Virus record (IMG/VR): IMGVR_UViG_3300013954_000001 | Location: 1 to 64,000 of that record | Strand: one strand, 5' to 3' | Length of the DNA stretch: 64,000 nucleotides | Source: a virus | Lineage: Duplodnaviria; Heunggongvirae; Uroviricota; Caudoviricetes | Part shown: in pieces, positions 21,935 to 41,653 of the stretch | Numbering within the stretch: position 1 is the stretch's first letter | How the letters are laid out: each line of letters starts with the position of its first letter | Notes under the pieces: generated by a model | What the model was told of the DNA's origin: nothing | The model's database searches: none | Seen by the model: the letters and a program-made list of their open reading frames with translations, nothing else | Position numbers and translations under genes: made by a program

Positions 21935-22732
21935 ATGTTCACTCAACATATTTATAGCGTACCTCACATTCAACATCACTTAGACAGGTACGTTAAGTTC
22001 ATCACAACGGCAATGAAGCAAAACGAACCTATCGGTGAAACTATAGAAATCCACCACATACTACCAAAGTCTATATGGCCAGAATTCTCAAACCTCAAAA
22101 AGAATCCCTGGAACATGGTGAGACTTACGTCTCGGCAACATTTTATAGCTCATTGCATGCTTGTCAAGTGTTTCTTCGATTCACACAAGCGTTCTATGTG
22201 CTACGCGTTAAAGTGTATGAAAGGTGTTCACTCTAACTACGACCGGTATTTCAACTCGAAGACTTACAATACACTGCGGCATTTAGTTTCAAATGCCTGT
22301 TCTGGCGAAAATAACGCAATGTACGGTAAAACTCACTCTGAAGTAGCAAGAGCGAAGATAAGCGCTACGCATAAAGGTAGAGAAATCACGAAGGAACACC
22401 GAGCCAAAATCAGTAACGCTATGTCGGGTGAGAACCATCCATTGTTCGGTACTACCAGATCAGAAGACACGAAAAAGAAGATTAGTGCGGCAATGGCCGG
22501 CAAGAAAACTCGATTAGGTGCCGTTTTAACTGATGAAACAAAAGAAAAAATCAGAAAGTCTCTTACCGGTAGAAAGCGTGAACCTGTATCTGAAGAGACT
22601 AAGGCTAAGCTTCGAGCGGCGAGAGCCAAACAGAAACCTAACCCTGTGATGGTATGCCCGTACTGCAAGCTAGAAAGCCGCAACAAAGGTAATATGACCA
22701 GGTATCATTTCGATAACTGCAAGATGAAGTGA
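21935..22732 (+). CDS. HNH homing endonuclease with three NUMOD3 repeats and a C-terminal C2HC zinc knuckle
   Basis: The HNH motif is IEIHHILPKS...N...RLTSRQHFIAH. The repeats read NAMYGKTHSE/ARAKIS, GENHPLFGTTRSEDTKKKIS and TDETKEKIRKS. The C-terminus is CPYCKLESRNKGNMTRYHFDNCK. It is inserted between gp32 and gp59 on the opposite strand. Confidence 0.75.
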   Translation: MFTQHIYSVPHIQHHLDRYVKFITTAMKQNEPIGETIEIHHILPKSIWPEFSNLKKNPWNMVRLTSRQHFIAHCMLVKCFFDSHKRSMCYALKCMKGVHSNYDRYFNSKTYNTLRHLVSNACSGENNAMYGKTHSEVARAKISATHKGREITKEHRAKISNAMSGENHPLFGTTRSEDTKKKISAAMAGKKTRLGAVLTDETKEKIRKSLTGRKREPVSEETKAKLRAARAKQKPNPVMVCPYCKLESRNKGNMTRYHFDNCKMK

Positions 22733-28658: not shown

Positions 28659-29084
28659 TCAGAGTACGCCTAGTCGTATACCGTTTCTGATTGACATCAG
28701 AATGTTACCGAGTCGATTCGAACCTCTGCCACGGCAGACTCCCCAAAACGTGTCACCCCAATAGTTACCTTCGACAAGCTTGTCTTCGCCTGTAGCGAGT
28801 AGGCGTTGCCTTAAATCGGCATCGGCGAACTTCTGAATCAGTAGGCATTCCATGACGCGTTCGCGGCGACAATACCAGTCAGGAGTCAACACGACTGTCT
28901 GACCAATTCGCTTGGCTGCGCCCGGAGTGGCGGCGTCACGAATACGCTGTCTGTCTGCGACACATGCAGTCTTAGCAGCTTGGTAGGCGTGTTCTACACT
29001 AGGGTAGATTTCGCCTTCGTATTCGATAGGCACCGCATAGAAGTTGCTGAGAAAGTCGTAGTCGCCGCTAAACGAGGTAATCAC
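28659..29084 (-). CDS. NADAR (YbiA/DUF1768) domain protein
   Basis: FSGDYDFLSNFYAVPIEYEGEIYPSVEHAYQAAK and W..D.FWG are the hallmark NADAR blocks. An ATGA overlap couples it to the upstream SLOG gene. Confidence 0.7.
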   Translation of the reverse strand: MITSFSGDYDFLSNFYAVPIEYEGEIYPSVEHAYQAAKTACVADRQRIRDAATPGAAKRIGQTVVLTPDWYCRRERVMECLLIQKFADADLRQRLLATGEDKLVEGNYWGDTFWGVCRGRGSNRLGNILMSIRNGIRLGVL

Positions 29085-29446
29085 AGTAGTAGCCCCAACG
29101 TGTTGATGTTGTATTGACAGATTCGAAGTCTAGCCTTTTTAGCGCGTCGCAACATGTCGGCACTGCCGTCAGACTCGCCATCCCATATGAGAACAAGTGC
29201 GTCTGCGTAGTCTGCCATGCGCTGATTTCTGACAAAGCCGGCTGTCAGCTTGCCGTCGCGTAGCCAGTCGGCGGGAAAGTCTTTGTAAGCAATACCTTTC
29301 GACTGTCCCCAAGCCTTTCCTATGTTGTCGACGCCGTCGGCACATCCACAAACAACTTCGGTGACGACAAAGTCTAGGTCGTCTAGTATCGAATAGACTA
29401 GAGAGACGTCGTTGATGTGACGCGATCCGGCAATGATAGTTTTCAT
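29081..29446 (-). CDS. SLOG-superfamily (DUF2493/YpsA-like) protein
   Basis: IIAGSRHIND...VVCGCADGVDNIGKAWG...DFPADW fits the DUF2493 signature GxR ... GGAxGaD ... WA. It is the first gene of the operon with NADAR. Confidence 0.5.
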   Translation of the reverse strand: MKTIIAGSRHINDVSLVYSILDDLDFVVTEVVCGCADGVDNIGKAWGQSKGIAYKDFPADWLRDGKLTAGFVRNQRMADYADALVLIWDGESDGSADMLRRAKKARLRICQYNINTLGLLL

Positions 29447-29456
29447 GACAACCTTC

Positions 29457-29464
29457 TATAAATA
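29457..29464 (+). promoter_or_regulatory. T4-type late promoter box TATAAATA
   Basis: An exact TATAAATA 35 nt upstream of the 29499 ATG. Confidence 0.6.
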
Positions 29465-29498
29465 CAGGTATACACTATTCTAAGACAGGTTCATAGAC

Positions 29499-29927
29499 AT
29501 GTCAATTGTCAAAGCAGACAAAATCGAATCTAAGTCTGGGCGTCAGCTAGCTATCGATGAAATAGCGTCGTCGAGTCATTTACAAGATTTGTCACTCCAG
29601 ATAAATCAGTCTCTCGACGCCATCCGCGAAGACGTTTCTGCTGTCAGCGCAAAGCAAAACGCGTTCGAAGTGAAGGGTGCAAATTTCACGGCGGTAATCA
29701 ATACCTCATACTACATCACATCGTCAGTTACTGTGAGTCTCCCGTTGCCAGCGGGACTTAAAGTAGGTGATGTCATTCGCTTTTCGAAAACTATATCCGC
29801 AACACCGTCTATTGTCAGGCAAGGTACAGCTAATATAGTTTCCGGTGACAAGACAGATGTTGACGTATTGTTTGATGCACAGGCAGAACTAACGTTCATC
29901 TTCAATGGTACTAACTGGGAACTATAA
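29499..29927 (+). CDS. Structural (tail-fibre-associated?) small protein, cassette-1 member (142 aa); paralog of the 39968-40525 product
   Basis: The C-terminal roughly 90 aa (FEVKGANFTAVINTSYY...FNGTNWEL) parallels YEVKSANFTAAVNKRYW...FNGTAWEI. Late promoter. Confidence 0.55.
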   Translation: MSIVKADKIESKSGRQLAIDEIASSSHLQDLSLQINQSLDAIREDVSAVSAKQNAFEVKGANFTAVINTSYYITSSVTVSLPLPAGLKVGDVIRFSKTISATPSIVRQGTANIVSGDKTDVDVLFDAQAELTFIFNGTNWEL

Positions 29928-29929
29928 CG

Positions 29930-31042
29930 ATGACTATTAAAATTAGTAACATGTTAGGAAGTTCAGGCGACACTATAGGTCAGTTAGTTGCACTTGCAGA
30001 CTCTAAGACGATAGCTACCTATCCTGACGGTCGCGTATATCTAAAGACAGGCAACTTGATTGTAGATGAAAATTCGACATACCCCGAAGCGTTTCAGTCT
30101 GCGTCTCACATGAATTTCAAAACCGAAAAGACAGTTGTGTTGCCTATCGAAGGTTCAATCACAGTTGCCATTAACAACGACATTATTATCGCCGTAAACC
30201 GCTCTAATGGACAGTACATTCGCTCTACTGATGCCGGAAGTACTTGGAGCAGTGTTGCTACGCTACCAAGTACTTCCGGCACTCTAGGAAAGATCAGCTA
30301 TTTTAAGAACGGTATATTTGTAGTAACCCACACTACAAGTTCTTACGTATGGCGATCTACTGACAACGGATTAACTTGGGCGCGAGTGACTACAACTCAA
30401 GTGAATACAACGCTATCAGCTACAGACGGTAACGTTTTAGTGACGTCTATTACCGCAGGTGCTGCATCTGGCGGTATCGCACATTCAACTGATGGTTCTA
30501 CATTTACGACAATCAACTTAGTCAGTGTTGCCACGACATGTGTAGACATCACGTACTTCAAAGGCAACTTTTATGCAGTAATTAACGGCAGACTGTTCAG
30601 GTCTGCGACAGGTAATAGCGGATGGGTTGAAATTCCTGTAACATCCTTAGGATCTTTTTCTGCCATTACAAAAGCTCTAGTACAACTAGGCGATTACTTG
30701 CGCGTCGGATTAGTCGAAACTTTTGACGGCGGCCTGACGTGGAAATACGACTCAACATTAAGTAGCAAGCCGTACCCAACTACTTTCACCAAAGACGCAC
30801 TGATTCGCTTTTCTTCAAATCAACTAACGTTTTCATTAGACTCTAACGTTTTCTATACGTGCGCTTCACAGGCAGGTTCAGTAGTAGCTTTAACCGATAT
30901 TGCCAACGGAAAAGAATGGTTATACAACAATTCCGGTAACAGTACGGCAGTACTTCGGCAAGTAACTTTCAAGCCACATATAGGCGCCACAACCCTAGAG
31001 CAATCAGGCGTCAATAATGCAACGTATGTGAGGATCAAATGA
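29930..31042 (+). CDS. Asp-box (BNR-repeat) beta-propeller protein, cassette-1 (370 aa)
   Basis: Repeats include STDAGSTWSS, STDNGLTWAR and HSTDGSTFTT. The N-terminus carries a YPEAF motif, and the protein ends ...YVRIK like its paralogs. Confidence 0.6.
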   Translation: MTIKISNMLGSSGDTIGQLVALADSKTIATYPDGRVYLKTGNLIVDENSTYPEAFQSASHMNFKTEKTVVLPIEGSITVAINNDIIIAVNRSNGQYIRSTDAGSTWSSVATLPSTSGTLGKISYFKNGIFVVTHTTSSYVWRSTDNGLTWARVTTTQVNTTLSATDGNVLVTSITAGAASGGIAHSTDGSTFTTINLVSVATTCVDITYFKGNFYAVINGRLFRSATGNSGWVEIPVTSLGSFSAITKALVQLGDYLRVGLVETFDGGLTWKYDSTLSSKPYPTTFTKDALIRFSSNQLTFSLDSNVFYTCASQAGSVVALTDIANGKEWLYNNSGNSTAVLRQVTFKPHIGATTLEQSGVNNATYVRIK

Positions 31043-32235
31043 CTATAAAAGCAAGCAGTTCTGCTAAAACTGGCGCCACTATTGGCGCCATCACTAAGAT
31101 TACGACATCGTTCGCCGACTTGTACAAACCCTTGTTGACGAATAAAGACGGCGTATTCTTAAAGACTGGATATATGATGCATTCTGAACGGCAAACATAT
31201 CCAGAAGCTTTCAACATATTAGCAAAACCCGCATTCACAGACGTTTTCACGGGTGTTGTAGACTACAATAGTGATGGAGGAAATGTAACGCAATCGTCAA
31301 TCAATACGACGTATGATTACAATAGAATCTTAGTAGGCCCTAACAATACACTGTTTGTGTCGTATGCAGCAGTTGCAAGCGGCACGTCTATAAACAGGTT
31401 TGTCATGTCGACAGACTCGGGTGCGACATGGAAAACTATATCTCGGTCAGATAACCCAGGATTGAACGACGTCTCAATGATTGCAACAGATGGTCAAGTT
31501 GTATTGGCCATTAGGAACGATTTGAGCAACGGCTGGAGATCGGTAGACGGAGGAAAAACTTGGAACACATTTTCTTTTGCGACTGGGGCGGGTTCACTAC
31601 ACTTCGGTAACGGTAGATTTGTGGCAATCGACAGCTATACATCGGCCCCAAAGGTTCGTGTGTCTACTGACTCAGGTCAAACTTGGAATAGTATCACGCC
31701 TACAAATATTGGCTCTTATTCTAAGCTAACTTTTAGTGGCGGTAAGTTCATAAACTTCGGAGCGATGTCGGCTAATGGCACGCTACGCGTCAGCGACGAT
31801 GGTGTCAATTACACGACTTTGATTGCGTTTCATACGGCATCAGGGTTGTCTAACGTTCATTTTATTGACAGTTTCTACTACGCTCGACACACAGACGGAC
31901 TATATAAATCAGATGGCGTACAAGCGTGGGTAAAAGTACTTGACGCAGGGACTCAGTCTGCCTCCCACAGTCTTATCAAGCACGCGAACGTTCTGTATGC
32001 TACGACTAACACTGGAATCTACAGGTCCACAGACGGCGGAAATAGCTTTTCTCTTTTTTTGTCTTCTGGTACAGATACTATGAGAAATATTGAAGTGACG
32101 TCTCACAGATTCATTTACTTTATGACTCGCAACAATATTACGTCTCCGTACTTCACGTTTCACGACGCAATCGGAATACCCTTTAAGCCAACCCAATCAG
32201 ACAATCTAATTGTTGAATACTTGAGGATCAAGTAA
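31039..32235 (+). CDS. Asp-box (BNR-repeat) beta-propeller protein, cassette-1 (398 aa)
   Basis: Repeats include STDSGATWKT, SVDGGKTWNT, STDSGQTWNS and STDGGNSFS. The N-terminus carries YPEAF and the protein ends ...YLRIK. Confidence 0.6.
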   Translation: MTIKASSSAKTGATIGAITKITTSFADLYKPLLTNKDGVFLKTGYMMHSERQTYPEAFNILAKPAFTDVFTGVVDYNSDGGNVTQSSINTTYDYNRILVGPNNTLFVSYAAVASGTSINRFVMSTDSGATWKTISRSDNPGLNDVSMIATDGQVVLAIRNDLSNGWRSVDGGKTWNTFSFATGAGSLHFGNGRFVAIDSYTSAPKVRVSTDSGQTWNSITPTNIGSYSKLTFSGGKFINFGAMSANGTLRVSDDGVNYTTLIAFHTASGLSNVHFIDSFYYARHTDGLYKSDGVQAWVKVLDAGTQSASHSLIKHANVLYATTNTGIYRSTDGGNSFSLFLSSGTDTMRNIEVTSHRFIYFMTRNNITSPYFTFHDAIGIPFKPTQSDNLIVEYLRIK

Positions 32236-32543
32236 TGCCTATCATCGCAATCCCACAGGCTTCAGAATTAATTAACCGTACTATCATTACGCGTCTCGCG
32301 TTTCTGAATCGGTTTACTACAGAAGAAGCAATCGCCCTAGACTTAAAAAGTATTGGTGCTACTGTAGACGCGGCTTCGCTACGTCTGTACAGGTCTAAAG
32401 TAGACGCCGCGTCTTTTATCGACTTGAGTCGTGAAGATACTCGACAAGGTGTACAATACCTTGAAACTCTAGGCGTTCTAGCCGAAGGTCGTGCCGCAGA
32501 GATTCTAGACACGCCCGCAGCAGACGGCGAAATTCCGAAGTAA
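32235..32543 (+). CDS. Hypothetical protein (102 aa)
   Basis: Coupled to the upstream stop (TAATG). It ends at a terminator. Confidence 0.4.
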   Translation: MPIIAIPQASELINRTIITRLAFLNRFTTEEAIALDLKSIGATVDAASLRLYRSKVDAASFIDLSREDTRQGVQYLETLGVLAEGRAAEILDTPAADGEIPK

Positions 32544-32578
32544 AAACAGAAAGGCCGCTATAGCGGCCTTTTCTTTGT
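32543..32578. terminator. Bidirectional rho-independent terminator (GAAAGGCCGCTA-tagc-GGCCTTTTC)
   Basis: A GC stem flanked by A- and T-runs, between convergent genes. Confidence 0.65.
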
Positions 32579-33867
32579 CATGCGTTCATCAGATTCGCAT
32601 ACTTGTTGGCTTCGTAGAACTGCTTGACGCGAGTGTCTACGATGACTTCGTACGACCCGATTTCTTTGAGAATGTGCAGACCGTCGAGACTGCGCAGACG
32701 GCTGAGAGCGACATAGCATTGGCCGTGCGCAAAGCAACCGCGTCCAGTGTAAATGGCAGCGTTTGACAGGCTCAAGCCTTGGCTCTTGTGAATAGTCACG
32801 GCGTAGCCTAGCTTCAGCGGCAGCTGGTTGTATTCGCCGATGCTGCGAATGCCTACGCCTTGGCCGTCGTTGAAGTACTCGAACTCTTGCCAAGTAAACC
32901 GCTGGACTTTCACGGTGACGCCAGTTTCAAGCTGTACGTCTACAGTGCCGTCGCCGCTGCCGAAAGACACTACGTAACCCGTTTGACCGTTGAAATAGGT
33001 TTCGTTGGTGTCGTTGGCGCAGATCAACACTTTGGTGCCGATCTTCAACCCCATTTCTTGAGGCACTGGCAGATCGCGGAAGCTGCCTTTCTTGACGCCG
33101 TAGAACATGCGCTCTTCGCCTTCAATGCTGTCGTAGTTGTCGGCGTTGACCATGTCGGCGTCTTTGTTCGTCGAACACAAGAACAGTGTGTCGTCGGCGA
33201 TGTCGTCACGGTTCATGCCGATTTTGTTGAGCTTAGCCAGACTCTTCGCGAAGTCAGCGTCGCGGCAACGAATCGAGTTGAGGGCGGCAATGAACTCTTG
33301 ATCGCTTTGACGCATGATTTCGTCGAGTTCGATAGTCTGGAAGCCAGCGTCTCGCCAACTGTCAGTGTCGAACGCGAACGGGCTGTCGAACTCTTCGCGG
33401 AAGTACTCGGCTTCGACACTGCGTTCGTTGAGTACTGGCGGCAGCTGGAAGAAGTCGCCGACGACGATGACTTGAAGGCCGCCGAAGGCTACGTTGCGCC
33501 GCTTGATCTTGCGCAGGTTGGCGTCGACGGCGGCAAACAAGTCGGCACGCACCATAGAGATTTCGTCGATAACGATTCGCTTAATGTCGTCGCCTTCGAA
33601 CAAGTCGCGAACTGCGTCTGCTACTTTACCGCGCTGGAACTTGCTGAGGAATCCAAGCGGGAACTTGAAGGTGCGATGGATGGTAGAGCCTTGGATGTTT
33701 TGGGCGGCAATGCCAGTCGGCGACAAGAAAATAGTGTCGTCGCCGTACATGTCTCTGATCTTGCGAACAAGTACAGATTTGCCGACGCCGCCGGGGCCGC
33801 TGATGAAGATGTTGTTGCCGCGAAGGATTTCGGTGAATGCGTACTGCTGTTTGGCGTTTAGTTGCAT
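32578..33867 (-). CDS. dda: Dda-like SF1B DNA helicase (RecD-like)
   Basis: Walker A is ISGPGGVGKSVL, with SF1 helicase blocks along the length. The 429-aa size and position match T4 Dda (439 aa). Confidence 0.75.
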   Translation of the reverse strand: MQLNAKQQYAFTEILRGNNIFISGPGGVGKSVLVRKIRDMYGDDTIFLSPTGIAAQNIQGSTIHRTFKFPLGFLSKFQRGKVADAVRDLFEGDDIKRIVIDEISMVRADLFAAVDANLRKIKRRNVAFGGLQVIVVGDFFQLPPVLNERSVEAEYFREEFDSPFAFDTDSWRDAGFQTIELDEIMRQSDQEFIAALNSIRCRDADFAKSLAKLNKIGMNRDDIADDTLFLCSTNKDADMVNADNYDSIEGEERMFYGVKKGSFRDLPVPQEMGLKIGTKVLICANDTNETYFNGQTGYVVSFGSGDGTVDVQLETGVTVKVQRFTWQEFEYFNDGQGVGIRSIGEYNQLPLKLGYAVTIHKSQGLSLSNAAIYTGRGCFAHGQCYVALSRLRSLDGLHILKEIGSYEVIVDTRVKQFYEANKYANLMNA

Positions 33868-33931
33868 GACTATGAGGTCTCACTTCAGATGATATAAAAG
33901 GTGACTAGGACCTAGTCACCGCAGTACAACT

Positions 33932-34333
33932 TTAGGCCAGCATGAAAATCTTGAGGCCGTGCTTGACGACGGCAAGATACACGTGGTCTTTCAGGCGTTG
34001 CGCTTCTGGCAGCTTGTCGTAGCTCACCATGCAAGGGTGCATCTTGAGGTCTACGTTCTTTTCGGCGCCATACACCCATCCGTCGCGAACCTTTTGAGCC
34101 ATCCAGTTTTTGTGACTTTGCTCAGGTGTAGTGTCAGGATTCTTGAGGACGTGAACGACGCCGTCAATAGCCGATTGTTGTTGCCAGTCGGGTGCGTCGT
34201 TCCAATCTGGTTGGCTGAAGTCGCCCAGACCTTCACACAGCCCCTTGTTTACTTGATGTGCGTATTCGGCGACAGTCGCGATACACGCGATAACGAACTC
34301 TTGTTCGGCGCCTTGCATTAGTGCGTCATTCAT
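33932..34333 (-). CDS. RyR-domain protein
   Basis: HKNWMAQKVRDGWVYGAEKNVDLKMHPCMVSYDKLPEAQRLKD fits the RyR signature W...K...GW.YG...K.HP.LVPY..LPE. The start was chosen at the internal Met that has an AAGAGG RBS. Confidence 0.55.
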   Translation of the reverse strand: MNDALMQGAEQEFVIACIATVAEYAHQVNKGLCEGLGDFSQPDWNDAPDWQQQSAIDGVVHVLKNPDTTPEQSHKNWMAQKVRDGWVYGAEKNVDLKMHPCMVSYDKLPEAQRLKDHVYLAVVKHGLKIFMLA

Positions 34334-34754
34334 TACAACCAACCTCTTTCTTGTTAACACCAATTGCGTACTTGTGACGCAACACCCATTCATCGCGGTC
34401 GCCGTACTTGATCACCTTGACAGTGCTGGGGTGGTCAATGACCTCCATATTTTCGGGAGACAGAACTTTGACGAGGTTCCACTCTTCGAGCATCTTGACG
34501 ATCCGGTTGCGTCTGGCGATATCACCTTCGCTCAAGTCGTTGCGCAGACCATCGAGTGCAAACAACTCTTTGAAGTGACAGATGTAGTAGCGGCCACGAC
34601 GATGCAGAATGTGTGCGCTTTGATTCAACACTTTTTCGTGTCGGCTCGGCACGCCCATGCGCGTCAACGTCTCTTTGATCTTGCGGAACCCGTCATCACC
34701 ACCCAACGGCTGAATTTCTACCATCTTAGCGATGATGTCTTCATGGGTAATCAT
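34326..34754 (-). CDS. regA: Translational repressor RegA
   Basis: FRKIKETLTRMGVPSRHEKVLNQSAHILHRRGRYYICHFKELFALDG matches T4 RegA FLKVKETLTRMGIANNKDKVLYQSCHILQKKGLYYIVHFKEMLRMDG. Confidence 0.75.
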   Translation of the reverse strand: MITHEDIIAKMVEIQPLGGDDGFRKIKETLTRMGVPSRHEKVLNQSAHILHRRGRYYICHFKELFALDGLRNDLSEGDIARRNRIVKMLEEWNLVKVLSPENMEVIDHPSTVKVIKYGDRDEWVLRHKYAIGVNKKEVGCNE

Positions 34755-35200
34755 TTTGTCTTGCCTCCAACTACATACATTTCTTTGATTGCTTTAACTT
34801 CGTCAGGTGTCAGTACCTTTAAGATGTCAATAGCTCGGTTTCGGTTGACAGCGTAGTGACGACACATCAGTTCGATGTCGTCGGCGTTGTCGGTGCTCTG
34901 TTTAGCCCACTTGCCGAAGCGCTTCTTCTTGGATATACCATAGAAGAAGAAGTCGTGAGCCATGCGTTTGTCGACTCGCCAATGCTTGTTCAATTCGTTG
35001 GCGTACAGCACAGTCTCTACGTGCTGCGACAGTCCTCGGCGAATGATGAAGACGTCGAAGTCGCGTTCGCTGTTGTCGTCGAACAAGTAGCGCTTTTCGT
35101 AGTTCAAGTCGCCTAGCCAGTCAAAAAGCTCTACACGCTTGCGCTTGTAGGGAGCTTCTTCGACGGCTTCGACTATTTCGTTGCCGTCGAGGTCGATCAT
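34751..35200 (-). CDS. Clamp-loader small subunit (T4 gp62-like)
   Basis: KKKRFGKWAKQSTDNADDIELMCRHYAVNRNRAIDILKVL matches T4 gp62 [42 protein letters not shown]. The start was set at the Met giving an ATGA overlap with the gp44 stop, as in T4. Confidence 0.6.
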   Translation of the reverse strand: MIDLDGNEIVEAVEEAPYKRKRVELFDWLGDLNYEKRYLFDDNSERDFDVFIIRRGLSQHVETVLYANELNKHWRVDKRMAHDFFFYGISKKKRFGKWAKQSTDNADDIELMCRHYAVNRNRAIDILKVLTPDEVKAIKEMYVVGGKTK

Positions 35201-36141
35201 TTGAACTCCAGTTGCATCATCAGGTTGACACACAAGGCAGCGATGTGCAGTTCTTTGTCTGCAACTACGCCGTCGTAGCGCTGGTAGTCTTCGAGAATCA
35301 GAATCGCTTCTGGAATCGACTGCGACGAAATGTGTTCGTTCAGACTACGATACAGCTTGCTATACAGGTTTGACAAGTCGCTACCAGAGTTTTCGGCACA
35401 CCATTGACGCACTTCTTTGAACTTTTTGGCCTTCATAGCGGCGACAAGCGCGTCGATGCTGACTTCTTGCAGGTCCATGAGAATGCCGGCGTCGATGCTG
35501 CCGCTACGCGCGTACTGCTGAAGCTGGCCAAGAATGCGCCTGTTGTCAGGGAAGAACTTCTGGATCAGTGTGGCTACGGCGCGCTTGTCGAAGTCGATGC
35601 CTTCACAAGCCAGGATGTCGCAGACGCGTTTGAAGAACGCCGCCTGAAGCTCAGGTTGCTCTTCTTTGCTGATGTCGAAGGCGATTTGTACGGTTCGGCT
35701 ATGCAGCGGTTCGATGATTCGATTCGGGTAGTTACACGTGAAGATGAACGTGCAAGTCTTCGAAAACGATTCGATGCTACCACGGAATGCAGCTTGCGCG
35801 GCTGGCGTCAGATGATCGCTTTCATCCATGATGACACACTTGCCGGCGTCGCTGAAGCTAACCGTAGACGCGAAGTCGCGAATCTTAGTGCGGAGCGTGT
35901 CGATGCCGTTGTCTTCACTGGCGTTGATGACAATCCAGTCTACGCCTAGCTCTTGACACAAGGCTTTGGCGACAGTCGTCTTGCCAGTGCCGGGACCGCC
36001 AGACAGCAGCAGATTCGGGATACTGCCAGTTTTGACGATGTCGTTGAACTTCTTTTTGATCGACTTAGGCAGGATGCAGTCGTCGATTACTTGGGGTCTG
36101 TATCGCTCCACCCAGAGTGGTTCACTTTTGTTACATTGCAT
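35197..36141 (-). CDS. Clamp-loader ATPase (T4 gp44-like, RFC family)
   Basis: AAA+ Walker A LLLSGGPGTGKTT, DExx box VIMDESDHL and an SRC-like motif. Confidence 0.8.
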   Translation of the reverse strand: MQCNKSEPLWVERYRPQVIDDCILPKSIKKKFNDIVKTGSIPNLLLSGGPGTGKTTVAKALCQELGVDWIVINASEDNGIDTLRTKIRDFASTVSFSDAGKCVIMDESDHLTPAAQAAFRGSIESFSKTCTFIFTCNYPNRIIEPLHSRTVQIAFDISKEEQPELQAAFFKRVCDILACEGIDFDKRAVATLIQKFFPDNRRILGQLQQYARSGSIDAGILMDLQEVSIDALVAAMKAKKFKEVRQWCAENSGSDLSNLYSKLYRSLNEHISSQSIPEAILILEDYQRYDGVVADKELHIAALCVNLMMQLEFK

Positions 36142-36207
36142 AACATCTCCTCACATTCAATGCAAGAGGCGCTTAAGCGCCTCTGCTACGATTTGTTGAC
36201 GCCAATG

Positions 36208-36918
36208 TTACGCGAAAGTGCTGTTCGCGTCGAGGCTCATCCAGAAGACTTTGGCGCCGTTCGTCACTTTGGAGATTTTGCGTGCCGAGATTTCGAACTT
36301 GCAGTCGCCGTCGAGGATGGTCAGCGCTTCGGCTTTGTAGAACATGTCGAAGTCGTCAGTGGTTTCACCAACTTCTACAGAGTAGCCGTTAGTCTCTTCG
36401 CCGCTGCCGTTGTTGCGGTCGAAAGCCGACAGCATGATAACGCCGTCAACGCTGCGGAAGCCGATGTAGCCAAGCTTCAGCGTTTGCGCGGCGTTCATCA
36501 CGGCCTTCAGCTGTTGAGCCGACACATTGACTTCGATGTCCTCGCTGGGCAGCTTGAAGTCTTTTTCGAAGTAGCTGTTGATCAGGTTGGCGGCGCCGTC
36601 GAGATAGCGAAGCTTCTGCTTGCCGTCTTCAGACTTGACAACAACGAATTTGTCGTTGCTGAAGTCGAGAACCGGGTTTTCGATGATGCTGAGGACGCTG
36701 ATGAACTCGCGCAGGTCATAGATGCAGAACGTACGCGGCAGCACGGCTTCCATGTCAGTTTCGCAGGCGACGCTACGTTGCTCGTTGATAGTCTTGAGGT
36801 GCTTGTCACCGCCGACGATCTTCAGAGTCTGGTTGATCGGATACAGGCTTTTCAGCGTGTCGATGTCGGCCTTAGATAGACGTACTTCATTGGTCATTGT
36901 ATAACTCCTAGTTTTCAA
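36208..36918 (-). CDS. Sliding clamp (T4 gp45-like)
   Basis: A 236-aa acidic protein (gp45 is 228 aa), placed upstream of gp44-gp62-regA exactly as in T4. Confidence 0.6.
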   Translation of the reverse strand: MKTRSYTMTNEVRLSKADIDTLKSLYPINQTLKIVGGDKHLKTINEQRSVACETDMEAVLPRTFCIYDLREFISVLSIIENPVLDFSNDKFVVVKSEDGKQKLRYLDGAANLINSYFEKDFKLPSEDIEVNVSAQQLKAVMNAAQTLKLGYIGFRSVDGVIMLSAFDRNNGSGEETNGYSVEVGETTDDFDMFYKAEALTILDGDCKFEISARKISKVTNGAKVFWMSLDANSTFA

Positions 36919-37190
36919 AGGTGAGACATTCTATGCGAAAGTCTCGTGTAGGTCAATATTCATCTTCGTACATGATGACAGATTGTACTAGCCGCCGTTC
37001 AGCGGCTCCCATGCGCCCGCCAGTTTCGTACTTGCCCCATGCTTTCTTAATGCGACGGTTTGACAGCTTCCGAAGTTTTGCCAGTGGCGGCAGCCCGTTG
37101 ATCCTCAACATTTCGCCTTGAAGACGACGCTCTTCGCGATTGTTTCTTCCGAAGCAGTGCGGGAATTTTGGCTTGAGTTTCATGTTGCCC

Positions 37191-37976
37191 TCAGTGTCTT
37201 GGCACTTTGACGTTAGAAGCGACACGCAATACGCCGCCGTCTAGAACTCGCAACGCGATTAGTTCGTCGCCGTATACGCAGCCGCTGTCGACGTTCAAGA
37301 AGACTGTGTTGGCGCCGCTCTGCTCTGCAATTTGGTCTTCGATGTCTCGGTATTCCCAACTCTGATGGCCGTAGACAAACGTCGTATTGACAGTGTGTGC
37401 CTTATACCGTGCGGCTTCTATGTCGACTTTAGTAGAGCGCATGCAGTAGTCAGACATGTTCGTGTTGGCGTCGCAGCGCGTCAAGTCAAGACTGTTTTCG
37501 ACGTCTCGAATCGGGGCATGACTGAACACGTAGCGGCGACCAGTAGTGTGCATGACTAACAACGGGCGTCGCGAAACTAGCGCCTTTAGCACAGCGTTTT
37601 GCGTGTCGACGTCAGCTGCTAGCAGCCTGTCGTGGTTCTCGCGTCTGGCAACAGAGCTACACGCCTTGTAGCCATACCATTCGGCGATAAAGTTCAGTTC
37701 GTGATTACCCATGCAGCGGTAATCGGCGACGTCGGCCAACACAAGGTCGATGAATGCCGGGCCGCGGTCGATCATGTCGCCTAGCTGAATCACGATAGGC
37801 TTCTTACCACGACTGTGCGCGTCGCTATAGATTTTGTCTATTAAGGCAAAGTACTCAGTCATGCAGCCGTGAACGTCACCTACAGCGTAGTACTCACAGT
37901 CGGCGCGAGTCACGATGTAGTTTTGTGCCATCACTTGCACCAAGAACTTGTTGAGATTCACTGTACGATTTCCCAT
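37191..37976 (-). CDS. Calcineurin-like metallophosphoesterase (Pnkp-type/lambda-PPase-type phosphatase)
   Basis: Motifs GDVHGC (GDxHG), GDMIDRGP (GDxxDRG) and MGNHELN (GNHE) are present. Confidence 0.7.
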   Translation of the reverse strand: MGNRTVNLNKFLVQVMAQNYIVTRADCEYYAVGDVHGCMTEYFALIDKIYSDAHSRGKKPIVIQLGDMIDRGPAFIDLVLADVADYRCMGNHELNFIAEWYGYKACSSVARRENHDRLLAADVDTQNAVLKALVSRRPLLVMHTTGRRYVFSHAPIRDVENSLDLTRCDANTNMSDYCMRSTKVDIEAARYKAHTVNTTFVYGHQSWEYRDIEDQIAEQSGANTVFLNVDSGCVYGDELIALRVLDGGVLRVASNVKVPRH

Positions 37977-38452
37977 TGCTGGTTGATACGGATGAACGTG
38001 TAGTTGTCGAATTCCTTTTGGGCGTCGACAAACCGTTCCATACCAGTGTAGTAAGAGTTCAGGTGACGATGAATCACCTCTTCAGGAACTTTGAGGCCAC
38101 CGGCGGCGCCACGACTTTCGTTGCGAGCCAGTAGCACATCGGTACCCGGAGGATCGATACTGATCACAGTGATGGCGACGCCGAACTTCTTGGCGAGTTC
38201 GAAATACGTGGCACAGTCTTTGAACTTCAGCGACGTCGCGTTGACGACGGTGTAGGCGACGCCGAAGCGAAGCCGCTGTTCGAGGATGCTGTTCAGCGTG
38301 TCGAACACAATGCGGTTGTTAGCCTGTTCTTCGACGCGGTCGAACAGCATCTTGCGGAAGCCGTCGCTAGACAGAATAGTGTGGGCGGCAAAGTGACGTT
38401 CAGCAAAATAGTCTTTACCAGAACAAGAAGTGCCGCGTAGTACGAAAATCAT
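37958..38452 (-). CDS. Polynucleotide 5'-kinase domain protein (T4 Pnk kinase-like)
   Basis: The P-loop LRGTSCSGKDYFAERHF parallels T4 Pnk TIGCPGSGKSTWAREF. Downstream VVNATSLKFKDCATYFELAKKFGVAITVISIDPP...RNESRG parallels T4 [34 protein letters not shown]...RNSKRG. Confidence 0.7.
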   Translation of the reverse strand: MIFVLRGTSCSGKDYFAERHFAAHTILSSDGFRKMLFDRVEEQANNRIVFDTLNSILEQRLRFGVAYTVVNATSLKFKDCATYFELAKKFGVAITVISIDPPGTDVLLARNESRGAAGGLKVPEEVIHRHLNSYYTGMERFVDAQKEFDNYTFIRINQQWEIVQ

Positions 38453-38454
38453 TG

Positions 38455-38658
38455 TTAACCCGCCTTGAGAATGACAGCAGTGACGATAAGACCGATCAAC
38501 GGCAAGAAGAAGAACTTCGACAGGCTGACGGTCATGGCTACGAAGCTGTACTTAGCTGAGTTCGCCACCCACATGACGAAGGCGATGCATGAGCCGATCA
38601 GCCACACCCAAAAGCCGAAGCCGGTCAGAATCAGAAACAGCAGCATGAAACCGTTCAT
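38455..38658 (-). CDS. Small membrane protein (67 aa, 2 TM helices)
   Basis: MNGFMLLFLILTGFGFWVWLIGSCIAFVMWV...LIGLIVTAVIL. Confidence 0.4.
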   Translation of the reverse strand: MNGFMLLFLILTGFGFWVWLIGSCIAFVMWVANSAKYSFVAMTVSLSKFFFLPLIGLIVTAVILKAG

Positions 38659-38699
38659 AACGAAGTCCTCTCTTCAAGTTCGATTTAAGTATGCCACCC

Positions 38700-39842
38700 T
38701 TACGTGGTGCTGTAAAGGGCGGCGTCAAAGAATTTTTGGATGGCGGCGTCAGTTCGAGGCGTGGCACCATTTTCTTTGAACGACTGTCGTAGCGCCTTCG
38801 AGCCGATCAGACCTCTGTTGTACACCTTGCTTTTGAACAAGTAGTTCTTCTGGACTGCGTTCAGGCTGTTGTCGCCTGCAATGTCGCGCGCCGTCAAGCC
38901 TCGCAAGTCATAGTTGACGGCGTCGCCGATGACTGTGCTGACAACGTAGTCGTGGAAGTCTTCTATGACGGCGTCGACGACAGGGTAAAGCTCTTCGTCG
39001 TAGCTGACGTACAGGTTGTCGGCACCCGAGTTCGCCAGTGCGTTGACAAAGCGTTCGGCACGCAACTCTTTCATGTAGTGAAGTTGAACGTATTCGCGCG
39101 TCTTGACTTTGAAGCGGAAGTTCAACGACGGGAAGTGATACACATAGCCTTCAATGCCTTTGTGGTCGTACAACTCGCCAAGCTGACCTGCTTCAAGTCT
39201 AGTGTAGCGACGCGTGACAGGACAGCCGAAGAGTTCGCCGAACTCTACAAGCCGGTCGTATTCGTAAGACGTCTGTGTCGGCGTATGAATGGCGCCAAGC
39301 AAGATCATCGTGTTTTCACCGTTCAGCGTGTAGCGCTTCAGCTGGTCTTCATACCACAAGTGCTTGTCGTAGTCAGCGAGACATTCGAACATGAAAGTCA
39401 CAGGAACTTTGATCTTCGACACGATGTCGTAGATACCCATGGCTTTGATCAGCACTTCATCGGCTTCGGCGAGTTCGCCGCCGAACGAACCTTTTGTCGT
39501 CACGAAGACTGCGCCTGTCTCAACGTCTGCCGACACGATGACTAGATGACCATTGACTTTGTCAAGGACTTCGTAGCGATAGTCTGCCATGAGCTTTTGA
39601 ACGGCTTCGATGCTAGTTTCAGGCTGTTCGCCGACATTGAAGATTTTTGGAAACGGTGAATTGATCGGGGCGTCACAGCCGTCGCGATAAATGAGACCTC
39701 GATGGGTTTTCGTCACATAATCCCAGGGGTGTGTGAAAAACTGCTCTTTAGTATAGCAAGTGATATGATAGACATTCTTATCTACAATCTTTGAACGTAC
39801 TGAAATACGGTTGCTATCAATATATTCTTGAAGATGTTTCAT
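38700..39842 (-). CDS. RNA ligase 1-like (T4 RnlA family) protein
   Basis: Motif I K-x-(D/N)-G appears as LDKVNGHLV, in an Rnl1-sized (380 aa) protein. It leads the operon that also contains the kinase and phosphatase. Confidence 0.5.
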   Translation of the reverse strand: MKHLQEYIDSNRISVRSKIVDKNVYHITCYTKEQFFTHPWDYVTKTHRGLIYRDGCDAPINSPFPKIFNVGEQPETSIEAVQKLMADYRYEVLDKVNGHLVIVSADVETGAVFVTTKGSFGGELAEADEVLIKAMGIYDIVSKIKVPVTFMFECLADYDKHLWYEDQLKRYTLNGENTMILLGAIHTPTQTSYEYDRLVEFGELFGCPVTRRYTRLEAGQLGELYDHKGIEGYVYHFPSLNFRFKVKTREYVQLHYMKELRAERFVNALANSGADNLYVSYDEELYPVVDAVIEDFHDYVVSTVIGDAVNYDLRGLTARDIAGDNSLNAVQKNYLFKSKVYNRGLIGSKALRQSFKENGATPRTDAAIQKFFDAALYSTT

Positions 39843-39920: not shown

Positions 39921-39928
39921 TATAAATA
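39921..39928 (+). promoter_or_regulatory. T4-type late promoter box TATAAATA
   Basis: An exact TATAAATA 40 nt upstream of the 39968 ATG. Confidence 0.6.
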
Positions 39929-39967: not shown

Positions 39968-40525
39968 ATGTCAACACTTAAAGTAGACAAGGTTGTGTCG
40001 TCGATAGCTCCACTACCTGTAGTAGATGGCGCCAGAGACGTCCAAGCGTTTGTAGCTACACAAGGCCAGACGCAGTTTACAGTTACAAAATTCAATAGCG
40101 ACCACAACATCCGAGTATTCGTAGGGTTGACAGAAGTACAATGCTCTTGGACTGGCGCTAATACTGTGACTGTATCCAGTACCACTGTATCAGCAGGCGC
40201 CGTAGTTCGTGTATACAAAGTCGGTTATAGCGTAGCCGAAATCAAAGGCGCTACCTCAAATTATGAAGTCAAGTCTGCAAACTTTACGGCGGCAGTAAAT
40301 AAGCGCTACTGGATTGAAAACAATTCTACTGTCACTCTTCCGTCGGCAGCAGTTGCCGCAAAAGGCAGTTATGTCGAACTAACAAAGAAGTCTGGCGCCA
40401 CTCCAGTCATTCAAACAACTGACGGTACTCAAATTTTAGTAGGCGCCTTATCTGATACATCAGTAACATTCAACACAAACGCGCGGCTGCTTGTCATGTT
40501 CAACGGCACGGCCTGGGAGATTTAA
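39968..40525 (+). CDS. Structural small protein, cassette-2 member (185 aa); paralog of the 29499-29927 product
   Basis: Its C-terminal half is homologous to the cassette-1 small protein (ends FNGTAWEI). Late promoter. Confidence 0.55.
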   Translation: MSTLKVDKVVSSIAPLPVVDGARDVQAFVATQGQTQFTVTKFNSDHNIRVFVGLTEVQCSWTGANTVTVSSTTVSAGAVVRVYKVGYSVAEIKGATSNYEVKSANFTAAVNKRYWIENNSTVTLPSAAVAAKGSYVELTKKSGATPVIQTTDGTQILVGALSDTSVTFNTNARLLVMFNGTAWEI

Positions 40526-40528
40526 GAA

Positions 40529-41653
40529 ATGCCTATTGATTTAGCAAAAGCAGTTGGTGGCGGTGGCGGACCTGCCCTCGGACAGTGCATCTACATGCCA
40601 GACGCCGCGACGCCTATCGTGTCTATCGGTGGCCAACAATTTCTCATGTCGGGGCACAGGTTAGTTGACGAAGCGGCTGCGTATCCTGAAGTGTTTGCGA
40701 GTTTTGCCGGTCCTGATCTAGGACCGTTAGTCAAAACTAAGTTTACACCAAGTATTAGCGCCGGTAAGGCTATATACGCAAACAATCTATTTGTTATTCT
40801 AAGCGCAACGACTAGTAGTACAGTGGCTATGTCATCAGACGGTATTGAATGGACAACTGGAACTCTACCTGCGTCAGCGCAGTGGGTTGGAATTGCGTAC
40901 GGCAACAACACCTTTGTCGCCGTATCTAGTTCTGCTGGCGCCGGCGGTGTATCTACGTCGACGAATGGGGCGACTTGGGCTAGTAGAACACCACCTAGTG
41001 CAAATTTAGGCGACGTAGCGTTTGGCGCAGGATTGTTCGTGGCTGTTTTAAGTGGTGGTACTGCCGTATACACATCTCCGGACGGTATCACATGGACACC
41101 TAGATCAGTAGGTCTAACTTATTCTAGTACTGCTATTGCTTACGGCAACGGAAAGTTTGTAGCTGTAACTGGTAGTACTTCCAATAACAGCGATGTAGTG
41201 ATTACATCTAGTGACGGTATCACATGGCAGTCATCTAAACTTCCATCGCTAGCTTCCTGGTCTAACATCGTGTACGGTAACGGTGTATTTGTAGCCGTCG
41301 CCGCAAATGAAAATATTTGTGCAGTATCGTCTGACGGCGTGACTTGGACGCGTTACTCGCTACCTGTAATAGGTACATGGATAAGCGGGCGCTTAGCATT
41401 TGGCGGAGGAATGTTTGTGCTAGTTGGTCCTTCTGACGTCTTTGTTACTTCAACGGACGGAAGGAACTGGACTCTAAGGACTAGTCCGTTTATTAACCTT
41501 TCACTAGGCGGAATTGTGTACGGAAACAACAAATTCGTAGCAGCAAATAGTAGTGCCGGTAGTGTGGGGATTGTTGCACAAATAGTACAAGGCGTAGGTA
41601 TTCCCGACTATAAAACAGATGGCCCGACAACGCTTTACATGAGGATCAAATGA
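40529..41653 (+). CDS. Asp-box (BNR-repeat) beta-propeller protein, cassette-2 (374 aa)
   Basis: Six S-x-D-G-x-(T/W)-W repeats: SSDGIEWTTG, STNGATWASR, SPDGITWTPR, SSDGITWQSS, SSDGVTWTRY and STDGRNWTLR. The N-terminus carries YPEVF and the protein ends ...YMRIK. Confidence 0.6.
   Translation: MPIDLAKAVGGGGGPALGQCIYMPDAATPIVSIGGQQFLMSGHRLVDEAAAYPEVFASFAGPDLGPLVKTKFTPSISAGKAIYANNLFVILSATTSSTVAMSSDGIEWTTGTLPASAQWVGIAYGNNTFVAVSSSAGAGGVSTSTNGATWASRTPPSANLGDVAFGAGLFVAVLSGGTAVYTSPDGITWTPRSVGLTYSSTAIAYGNGKFVAVTGSTSNNSDVVITSSDGITWQSSKLPSLASWSNIVYGNGVFVAVAANENICAVSSDGVTWTRYSLPVIGTWISGRLAFGGGMFVLVGPSDVFVTSTDGRNWTLRTSPFINLSLGGIVYGNNKFVAANSSAGSVGIVAQIVQGVGIPDYKTDGPTTLYMRIK

Follow-up and report, generated by a model that had tools for sequence, protein, structure and literature searches.

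Late-expressed cassettes of small adaptor-like proteins and Asp-box propellers as candidate exchangeable receptor-binding modules of a T4-like phage

Introduction

Several phages carry branching or adaptor domains to which receptor-binding proteins (RBPs) attach through short docking peptides. The described systems include gp37 of phages K1E, K1-5 and SP6 with its two tailspikes, the RBP1 branching domain and the conserved RBP2 peptide of the Klebsiella phages KP32 and KP34, and gp66/gp63.1 of phage G7C (PMC6872550; PMC13352976). The binding of peptide and branching domain has been validated experimentally (PMC13352976). Here, we describe two gene cassettes of a T4-like phage found in a 64-kb stretch of DNA (hereafter, the window), which is part of a 150.7-kb metagenomic contig (IMG/VR record IMGVR_UViG_3300013954_000001, positions 1 to 64,000). 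Each cassette encodes a small protein of 142 or 185 amino acids (aa), whose C-terminal domain we call the connector, followed by one or two distal proteins with Asp-box repeats that were predicted to be beta-propellers. The module is most likely a variation on the known anchor-branch/adaptor RBP principle, a recognized way of host change, present here in a T4-like phage and common to several phage morphotypes.

As in K1-5/SP6 and KP32/KP34, a virion-anchored protein with a small beta-domain would accept a separately encoded, exchangeable RBP. The N-terminal peptides of the distal proteins (MPIDLAKAV and MTIKISN) resemble that of KP34 (MALxxLV) in being conserved, 7-12 residues long and hydrophobic in pattern, and the RBP genes of all these phages interrupt conserved synteny and are horizontally exchanged. 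The differences are also clear. The phage described here is a T4-like myovirus, whereas the others are podoviruses; its adaptor is a stand-alone protein of 142-185 aa, in which no sequence homology to T4gp10 D2/D3 could be detected; its distal proteins are non-enzymatic-looking propellers rather than beta-helix depolymerases; a conserved third gene, orf102, is present; and sipho-, myo- and T4-like phages have the same connector-peptide pairs in common.

Other described systems share single elements with the cassettes. T4 gp10 and gp9 and CBA120 TSP4 with its N-terminal XD domains (PMC8825819) link the baseplate to fibres or spikes. The gene for the baseplate protein gp8 adjoins cassette 2. About 100 residues of its small protein superpose on presumed T4 gp10, on TSP4-N and on StcE; it is much smaller than the T4 and CBA120 proteins, and no sequence similarity to them was found. 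In T2 and S16 (gp38 on gp37) and in V22 (gp26/gp27), a separate distal adhesin sits on the fibre tip and a chaperone-type gene lies directly 3' (PMC7289586), an arrangement that the cassettes may share. The Gly-rich distal proteins of loci related to the cassettes recall the polyglycine adhesin gp38; unlike in T2/S16, no sequence homology to gp37, gp38 or gp57A was found. Finally, gp121/gp122/gp123 of Rheinheimera phage Barba and the modules of prophages L003, L007, L010-13 and L026 are homologous to the cassettes. These three-gene modules encode a connector-bearing fibre, then a distal protein with a start such as MP.xLKAV-GGGG, and last a protein of the orf102 family or DUF4376. The module of L026 includes a 374-aa propeller that ends in YVRIK and is followed by an orf102-like gene, as in cassette 1. 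In contrast to the window cassettes, the N-terminal parts of the fibres in these modules vary by phage type, and the distal bodies differ.

Results

Gene Content and Transcription of the Cassettes

Cassette 1 starts with an exact TATAAATA late box on the plus strand (29457-29464), 34 nucleotides (nt) 5' of the ATG at 29499. According to the list of open reading frames (ORFs), three plus-strand genes follow: small142, encoding a short putative adaptor or fibre protein of 142 aa (29499-29927); prop370, encoding a distal Asp-box beta-propeller protein with four Asp-box-like repeats and the N-terminal peptide MTIKISNML (29930-31042); and prop398, encoding a second distal protein of this kind with the N-terminal peptide MTIKASSSA (31039-32235), for which an AlphaFold2 (AF2) model was made. 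The cassette is closed by orf102 (32235-32543, plus strand), a gene for a conserved accessory protein that matches phrog_25252, a family of unknown function. A bidirectional intrinsic terminator (32549-32572, both strands) lies between the stop codon of orf102 and that of the convergent dda gene; it has a 10-bp GC-rich stem and T tracts on either strand.

Cassette 2 is also headed by an exact TATAAATA box (39921-39928, plus strand), located 39 nt 5' of the ATG at 39968; an earlier note on this DNA had reported such a box for both cassettes. It comprises small185, encoding a putative adaptor protein of 185 aa (39968-40525, plus strand; ORF list, AF2 model), and prop374, encoding a distal propeller with six S-x-D-G-x-T-W repeats and a match to DUF6242 (40529-41653, plus strand). 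The docking-type N-terminal peptide of prop374, MPIDLAKAVGGGGG, is encoded at 40529-40570 (plus strand). As the earlier note had stated, the cassette runs on into genes for proteins of 439 and 1639 aa. Both are plus-strand backbone genes, the first for a gp8-like baseplate wedge subunit (41650-42969; PF09215; phrog_438, E 6e-108) and the second for a structural-type DUF4815 protein (43012-47931; PF16075, E 2e-62). The gp8 gene starts with a tandem ATGATG (41650-41655), and a close relative of the window (contig L002) keeps only the second ATG. The true start may therefore be at 41653, and the overlap with the stop codon of prop374 may be phage-specific.

The TATAAATA box was found six times in the window, versus 0.69 occurrences expected. 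The remaining plus-strand boxes precede gp19 (tail tube), a T4-type gp22-like scaffold gene and gp23 (major capsid) by 27-35 nt. Both cassette boxes lie at the spacing of a T4-type late unit (about 25-40 nt before the first gene), like those of true late structural genes. Judging by this spacing and the terminator 3' of orf102, the cassettes look like late transcription units. The sixth box is on the minus strand (21949-21956), 75 nt 5' of the gp32 single-stranded DNA-binding gene, a wider distance than that of the structural genes (27-39 nt).

The motifs previously ascribed to the large proteins were recovered in all three (370-398 aa): YPE[AV]F near residue 52-58, Asp-box-like repeats, here four to six, and a Y[VLM]RIK end. 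Within the window, YPE[AV]F, the Asp-box repeats and Y[VLM]RIK were confined to prop370, prop398 and prop374. The cassettes had also been described as direct repeats; no repeat was seen at the nucleotide level, and the likeness is at the protein level only.

Replacement of Distal Genes between Near-Identical Phages

We compared the window with three closely related contigs, L002 and L024 (both from the same sample) and L025, whose backbone shared 93-94% nt identity with it. Protein identity was 96% for dda and 96% for regA in the relatives, and 98% for gp8 in L002. It was lower for the L002 orthologue of small185 (86%) and for orf102 of the relatives (78%).

The distal genes differed. In cassette 2, the 90% nt similarity to L002 ended at position 40563, 35 nt into prop374 and past its N-terminal peptide, and resumed at 41626. 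Between these breakpoints, L002 carries a gene for a 157-aa protein resembling carbohydrate-binding modules (CBM-like), which starts with MPIDLAKAVGGG as in prop374, and a gene of the orf102 family. Cassette 1 of L024 and L025 consists of two propellers followed by orf102, and nt similarity to L024 resumed at 32216. Their second propeller shares 27-28% identity with prop398, and their first, which is partial, shares 32% with prop370. The comparison of related phages that had been suggested earlier thus showed distal genes that were swapped or had diverged to about 28% identity, while the proteins of the flanking genes stayed 96-98% identical (93% nt). A replacement of this kind is typical of host-range determinants.

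A Connector Domain Shared with Tail Fibres of Other Phages

The homologous C-terminal domain expected in the two small proteins was readily detected: small142 and small185 were 37% identical over their 97 C-terminal aa (E 2e-19). Small142 consists of the N-terminus MSIVKADKI, a probable helical stretch and an approximately 85-aa C-terminal connector of subtype B (...IFNGTNWEL, residues about 58-142, ~29670-29924). In small185, the N-terminus MSTLKVDKV precedes a beta domain (residues 22-85), and the connector is of subtype A (...FNGTAWEI, residues about 99-185, ~40262-40522). The nonapeptides MSIVKADKI (29499-29525) and MSTLKVDKV (39968-39994) have a common pattern, which prophage homologues lack. 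The MS..K.DK[IV] N-terminus is presumably a phage-specific baseplate anchor.

We found 22 homologues of the connector. In siphovirus-type prophages (L003-5, L010-12), they immediately follow the tape-measure and tip genes; others lie after Baseplate_J in L013 and in Gp77/Gp80-type phages (L006/7). In Rheinheimera phage Barba, the annotated tail fibre gp121 ends in the connector. A scan of GTDB genomes with a connector pattern yielded no confirmed match. The small185 connector was 57-66% identical to its prophage homologues versus 39% to that of small142; the two copies are therefore two subtypes of a mobile domain and not the product of a duplication in situ. An identity of about 40% between the paralogs, as claimed earlier, holds for the domain of the small proteins (37-39%) and not for the propellers (26-28%).

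The AF2 model of small185 had a predicted local distance difference test (pLDDT) score of 83 and comprised two beta domains. When it was searched with Foldseek, about 100 columns were aligned to each of the following: a baseplate protein of the Klebsiella phages KP1/Lilla1 (9f4a_LS, E 3.5e-5), CBA120 TSP4-N (7rej, E 2e-3), StcE (4dny, E 0.039), and 5iv5_AC (E 0.026), a T4 baseplate chain of 602 aa that we take to be gp10. Small185 thus showed a structural likeness to the XD beta-sandwich domains of the T4 gp10/gp9 type. The same structural group is named for the XD1 domain of TSP4-N in the paper describing it (PMC8825819, Table 2).

N-Terminal Peptides and Connector Subtypes

In about 16 loci, drawn from sipho-, myo- and T4-like phages, we compared how the connector ends with how the protein encoded next begins. 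In eight of eight loci, a subtype A connector (...FNGTAWEI) was followed by a protein starting with MPIDLAKAV-GGGG or the close variants MPIDLKAAI, MPIDLARAL and MPIIDLAKAL. In six of six loci, a subtype B connector (...FNGTNWE[LV]) was followed by M[TA]I[KS]..., as in prop370 (MTIKISN), prop398 (MTIKASS) and a prophage protein (MAISLKS). Two further types were seen in one locus each: ...SGTRWEVMI was followed by MAINLAD in L012, and ...TGSVWEI by MPTSLKAVLGGGGG in Barba. The connector subtype thus predicted how the next protein begins, over its first 9-12 residues.

The bodies behind these peptides are unrelated. The window has propellers; L002, L012 and L019 have CBM-like proteins (147-157 aa); and L003, L007, L010, L011 and L013 have Gly-rich ones. 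Across the compared loci, the short N-terminal peptide did not depend on the body that it precedes. Conversely, either peptide can be found on the same Gly-rich body (61-70% identical between loci), matching the subtype encoded upstream. The propeller of L026 lies behind a fibre without a connector, and its N-terminus differs (MDITHDP...). The peptide is usually followed by a Gly linker. Among the codons for MPIDLAKAV, there were only wobble-position (synonymous) differences. A scan of IMG/VR with a pattern for the junction returned three loci, of which two were already known and one was a chance match (a pentapeptide-repeat protein).

Propeller Proteins

Prop370, prop398 and prop374 had pairwise identities of 26-28% (E 1e-11 to 6e-13). 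The Asp-box motif matched four times in prop370, five times in prop398 and six times in prop374, with a spacing of about 40-45 aa and a few wider gaps. The Pfam matches were to families of the BNR/Asp-box beta-propeller superfamily (PF02012, PF15902, PF19755/DUF6242), at or near their cut-offs. DUF6242 matched prop374 with 30.2 bits (cut-off 29), and Sortilin-Vps10 came close to its cut-off of 33 in prop398 (32.8 bits) and scored 24.1 bits in prop370. A segment of prop370, G..YLKTG...YPEAF, had suggested a tail Collar domain (G..YL.TG...YPEAF); this identity was dropped, as Pfam gave no Collar match to any of the three propeller N-termini with a limit as loose as E ≤ 10.

The fold assignment rests on prop398, the propeller for which an AF2 model was made. 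The model showed six four-stranded blades within residues 92-342 (about 250 residues), with a core pLDDT of 70-94. The top Foldseek matches in PDB, with E values of 4e-10 to 1e-8 and a probability of 1.00, were Ycf48 and the Vps10p domains of SorLA and sortilin. Like the window propellers, Ycf48, Vps10p and DUF6242 have Asp-box repeats; unlike Ycf48 (seven blades) and Vps10p (10 blades), the prop398 model has six blades and carries phage-specific N- and C-terminal extensions, and identity is only 12-17%. GH74 xyloglucanases appeared at ranks 20-49 (TMq 0.30-0.46), and no GH33 sialidase was present among the top 50 fold matches of prop398 in PDB. The FRIP/RIP motif ([FY]R[IV]P or R[IV]P) was searched for in all three propellers and was found in none. 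Of the two folds that the suggested structure prediction was meant to distinguish, the beta-propeller was therefore obtained, with six blades in prop398, and a GH33/GH74-like fold with catalytic FRIP/RIP residues was not. GH74 enzymes consist of two tandem seven-bladed propellers that form a catalytic cleft, whereas Ycf48, Vps10p and DUF6242 bind ligands or peptides and are non-catalytic. The prediction of propellers was right; with non-enzymatic best fold matches and no such motif, a glycosidase is unsupported. The propellers are most likely non-enzymatic binding modules of the Ycf48/Vps10/DUF6242 type.

Viral propellers similar to prop398 in BFVD were annotated as a short tail fibre, a tail collar protein, a Caulobacter phage tail fibre and a cyanophage baseplate wedge initiator; one match was auto-annotated as a xyloglucan hydrolase. 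Using tblastn, we found similar propellers inside giant gp7-like baseplate proteins of cyanophages and inside a host-specificity protein of Xoo-sp13. In P0017, a tail Collar domain is combined with a propeller that is 33-35% identical to prop374. Among GenBank phages, there was no match to either cassette by megablast and none to prop370 by tblastn. A word-indexed search with the propeller alignment missed true relatives, even prop374, and an exhaustive hidden Markov model search returned 43,704 matches dominated by giant multi-propeller proteins; the N-terminal module was not covered by any of the best 150. The positional orthologues in L024-26 were recovered through orf102 only.

The RIK End and the Gene Junctions

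All three propeller genes of the window end in TA[CT]-NTG-AGG-ATC-AA[AG], the start of the next gene overlaps or abuts this end, and GAGGA lies 5-8 nt before the ATG. The RIK tail thereby coincides with the Shine-Dalgarno sequence of the next gene, TGAGGATCAA. At 31029-31042 (plus strand), the junction TGAGGATCAAATGA contains the (V)RIK tail and stop codon of prop370, the Shine-Dalgarno GAGGA and the overlapping ATG of prop398. At 32222-32237 (plus strand), TGAGGATCAAGTAATG contains the (L)RIK tail and stop codon of prop398, a Shine-Dalgarno sequence and the ATG of orf102. At 41640-41653 (plus strand), TGAGGATCAAATGA recurs with the (M)RIK tail and stop codon of prop374, a Shine-Dalgarno sequence and the gp8 start. 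The propellers of L024-26 end likewise.

The Arg of RIK is always encoded by AGG, and in L002 the same letters (acgcttta..GAGGATCAA) are non-coding and lie 5' of gp8. Hence the motif acts, at least in part, in ribosome binding and translational coupling, and the junction is also a 3' recombination boundary. At the protein level, RIK was present in seven of seven propeller genes examined and absent from the non-propeller distal genes, and the residue before it was always hydrophobic; a role of the tail in the protein may thus exist as well. An interpretation of the RIK tail as a docking segment was set aside in favour of a translational-coupling junction with an embedded Shine-Dalgarno sequence. 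The comparison of L002 (1826-1851) with the window (41626-41651) revealed acgctttaacGAGGATCAA, a non-coding remnant of a propeller 3' end before gp8, which suggests that the ancestor of L002 had a propeller there before its distal gene was replaced.

The orf102 Family

Orf102 had no Pfam match at E ≤ 10. Its more than 1165 homologues are 55-78% identical, unnamed without exception and outside any Pfam family, and they share the domain ITRLAFLxRFT..IDLSR.DT. A gene of this family closes the module in L002 (1372-1818), L007 (4238-4633), L013, L024-26 (4530-4841 in L026) and Barba (gp123); a further member is encoded in L014 (5696-6061). Members were always the last genes of tail-fibre modules, in very different phages.

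In sister modules, the position of orf102 is filled by DUF4376 proteins. DUF4376 is the family of V22 gp27, which has been shown by experiment to be a fibre chaperone (PMC7289586). Homology gave no support to the idea that orf102 is itself a DUF4376 chaperone: no relation between the C-domains could be detected, the hhalign probability was 4.5%, the alignment was confined to an N-terminal region that orf102 lacks, and position alone is shared. It is this gene position that suggests a chaperone or assembly role for orf102.

Backbone Synteny and Origin of the Cassettes

The nearest GenBank phage was Pseudomonas phage pf16, a distant relative with 58% aa identity in gp8 and 60% between the DUF4815 protein and pf16 gp123. 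The genes collinear with pf16 (44-75% aa identity) are those for DNA ligase, dda, the 153-aa protein, regA, gp62, gp44, gp45, phosphatase, AAA_33, the 67-aa protein, gp8, the DUF4815 protein and later genes. Between the cassettes, the window holds a minus-strand block (32578-39842) of genes for a dda-like helicase, a 153-aa protein, regA, gp62, gp44, gp45, a phosphatase, an AAA_33 kinase-like protein, a 67-aa protein and rnl1. The accessory gene rnl1 (38700-39842, minus strand; T4 Rnl1-type RNA ligase) is outside the collinearity with pf16. The block had been described as extending over 7.7 kb from dda to rnl1; its gene span, from a PIF1/Dda-type helicase to a T4 Rnl1-type RNA ligase, was as described, and its size is 7.27 kb.

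The pf16 locus contains no counterpart of the NADAR gene, the YAcAr gene, cassette 1, rnl1 or cassette 2. In pf16, for which late promoters have a published precedent (PMC5587285), a TATAAATA box lies 36 nt 5' of gp8. Since that box directly precedes gp8, cassette 2 lies between an ancestral late promoter and gp8, and its late box probably also drives gp8. The GC content of third codon positions (GC3) was 38-45% in both cassettes (29499-32543 and 39968-41653) versus 52-78% in all neighbouring genes, which points to a donor of different base composition. Because the gene order of pf16 lacks the cassettes and their GC3 is foreign, the position of the replication block beside gp8 is ancestral and the cassettes are acquired.

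NADAR and YAcAr/SLOG genes (28659-29446, minus strand) and rnl1 flank the cassettes. A YAcAr gene also lies near the homologous fibre module in prophages L003-L005, and the two may have been acquired together. The gene between dda and regA (33932-34393, minus strand) had no Pfam match; its counterpart in L024 (3379-3780) and L025 has an RyR domain (PF02026), which is unusual for a block of replication genes.

Discussion

We propose, with a probability of roughly 0.6, that the cassettes are mobile, late-expressed receptor-binding modules, each made up of an adaptor and docking-peptide propellers, inserted in variable islands of a pf16-like T4-type backbone. The small protein would be an adaptor or mini-fibre whose N-terminus anchors it to the baseplate and whose C-terminal beta-sandwich of about 85 aa serves as the connector, a domain also present in tail fibres of sipho- and myophages unrelated to this phage. 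Onto it would dock, by a peptide of 9-12 residues, one or two exchangeable distal proteins, which in the window are single six-bladed Asp-box propellers. Cassette 1 would add the conserved 102-aa accessory protein in the position of the DUF4376 fibre chaperones. If the part of the distal gene that lies between its docking peptide and the 3' TGAGGATCAA junction were exchanged, host specificity would change and the baseplate would stay untouched. With three propellers, there could therefore be up to three adhesin types per virion. We infer that the cassette proteins are present in the virion, that the propellers dock on the adaptors and that they bind receptors.

Several observations weigh against this proposal. 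The Pfam family nearest to the connector was Phage_depo_C, at 24.7 bits versus a cut-off of 25, and this likeness to the C-terminal domain of depolymerases could mark a receptor-binding tip. The connector profile built from the 22 homologues had no match among PDB sequences at E ≤ 10, its fold matches were modest (E 3.5e-5 to 0.03), and in the model the fold looks like the XD1 "spacer" and not like the docking domains XD2/XD3. Residues 1-94 and 357-398 of the prop398 model were below a pLDDT of 50, so the attachment region is without structure. As far as can be judged from the sequences, the propellers might still have enzymatic activity. The pairing of peptide and connector could reflect the linkage of adjacent DNA, or a conserved recombination or coupling junction, and this junction is conserved at the nucleotide level too (TTCAACGGCAC.GCCTGGGAGATTT.A nnn ATGCCTATTGATTT). 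Finally, orf102 has no detectable homology to the DUF4376 chaperones.

Besides receptor binding, the earlier note had considered that the cassettes encode glycan-degrading appendages (in this reading sialidase- or GH74-like) from an old duplication within the genome, that their shared termini may dock at one baseplate site, and that the replication block may have been inserted between them. Its basic elements are real, namely the Asp-box repeats and the late promoters, and the idea of receptor-binding tail appendages is supported by these promoters, the adjacency to gp8, the tail-fibre homology of the small protein and the swapped distal genes. What found no support was glycan degradation. GH74 enzymes do appear in the lower part of the fold list, and one BFVD match bears the annotation of a xyloglucan hydrolase; against this, FRIP/RIP is missing, GH33 is absent from the top 50, the best matches are Ycf48 and Vps10p, and a single six-bladed propeller contrasts with the two seven-bladed ones of GH74. 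The remaining parts fared no better. The N-terminal peptides are not shared: they differ between the cassettes and track the small protein encoded upstream, and the RIK end overlaps a Shine-Dalgarno sequence. An old duplication is contradicted by the small185 connector, which is nearer to those of prophages (57-66%) than to that of small142 (39%). Insertion of the replication block is refuted by the order in pf16, where ligase, dda and the following genes up to the 67-aa gene adjoin gp8 and the DUF4815 gene without cassettes, and by the foreign GC3 of the cassettes. Taken as a whole, we regard this explanation as very improbable.

It is somewhat easier to imagine, and still unlikely, that receptor binding falls to the small protein, which would be a fibre tipped by its conserved C-terminal beta-sandwich, and that the downstream proteins are chaperones or other non-virion factors like T4 gp38 or V22 gp27. 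The depolymerase C-terminal domain as nearest Pfam family would fit this, as would the annotation of the connector-bearing protein of Barba as the tail fibre; genes 3' of fibre genes are, moreover, often chaperones (PMC7289586). However, the connector is conserved and the downstream genes are hypervariable, which is the opposite of what a tip and its chaperone would lead one to expect. Propellers of 370-400 aa with homologues inside fibre and baseplate proteins are unlikely chaperones, and the chaperone position is already held by a separate third gene. We give equally little credence to an association of peptide and connector that has no structural meaning, in which the stop/start junction would be a recombination linker and translational-coupling element moving as one DNA block, and the propellers would attach otherwise or not at all. 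The junction DNA is indeed conserved, the breakpoints of the cassette swaps fall exactly at the conserved junctions, and a ribosome-binding site can be shown to coincide with the RIK motif at the 3' end. Nevertheless, the codons of the peptide vary at wobble positions while its amino acids are fixed, a Gly linker follows the peptide as in known docking peptides, recombinants retain matched pairs, and short N-terminal docking peptides have been established by experiment in other RBP systems (PMC13352976).

A broader version of our proposal is more speculative, and we offer it tentatively, as something that may well turn out to be wrong. Connector and peptide might together form a plug-and-socket standard across morphotypes, with at least two orthogonal pairs (NGTAWEI/MPIDLAKAV and NGTNWE[LV]/M[TA]I[KS]). 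Through it, sipho-, myo- and T4-like phages could trade unrelated adhesins as finished tips, be they Asp-box propellers, polyglycine proteins or CBM-like domains. The highly conserved, unannotated orf102 family, with its more than 1000 members, might then be a dedicated assembly factor, and the free-standing propellers a new class of non-enzymatic adhesins.

If the docking model is true, it would describe a compact modular retargeting of a large T4-like phage, in which the segment swapped is bounded by the docking peptide (about 12 codons) and a junction of 14 nt. It would also provide two peptide-connector pairs that are apparently orthogonal and already in use by very different types of phage, a help in engineering phages and in the prediction of host range from metagenomes. 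In addition, it would give a first functional context to the very conserved, unannotated orf102 family and to many phage BNR propellers. Even if the model fails, the cassettes are a clear case of the turnover of receptor-binding cassettes in a backbone that is 93-98% identical.

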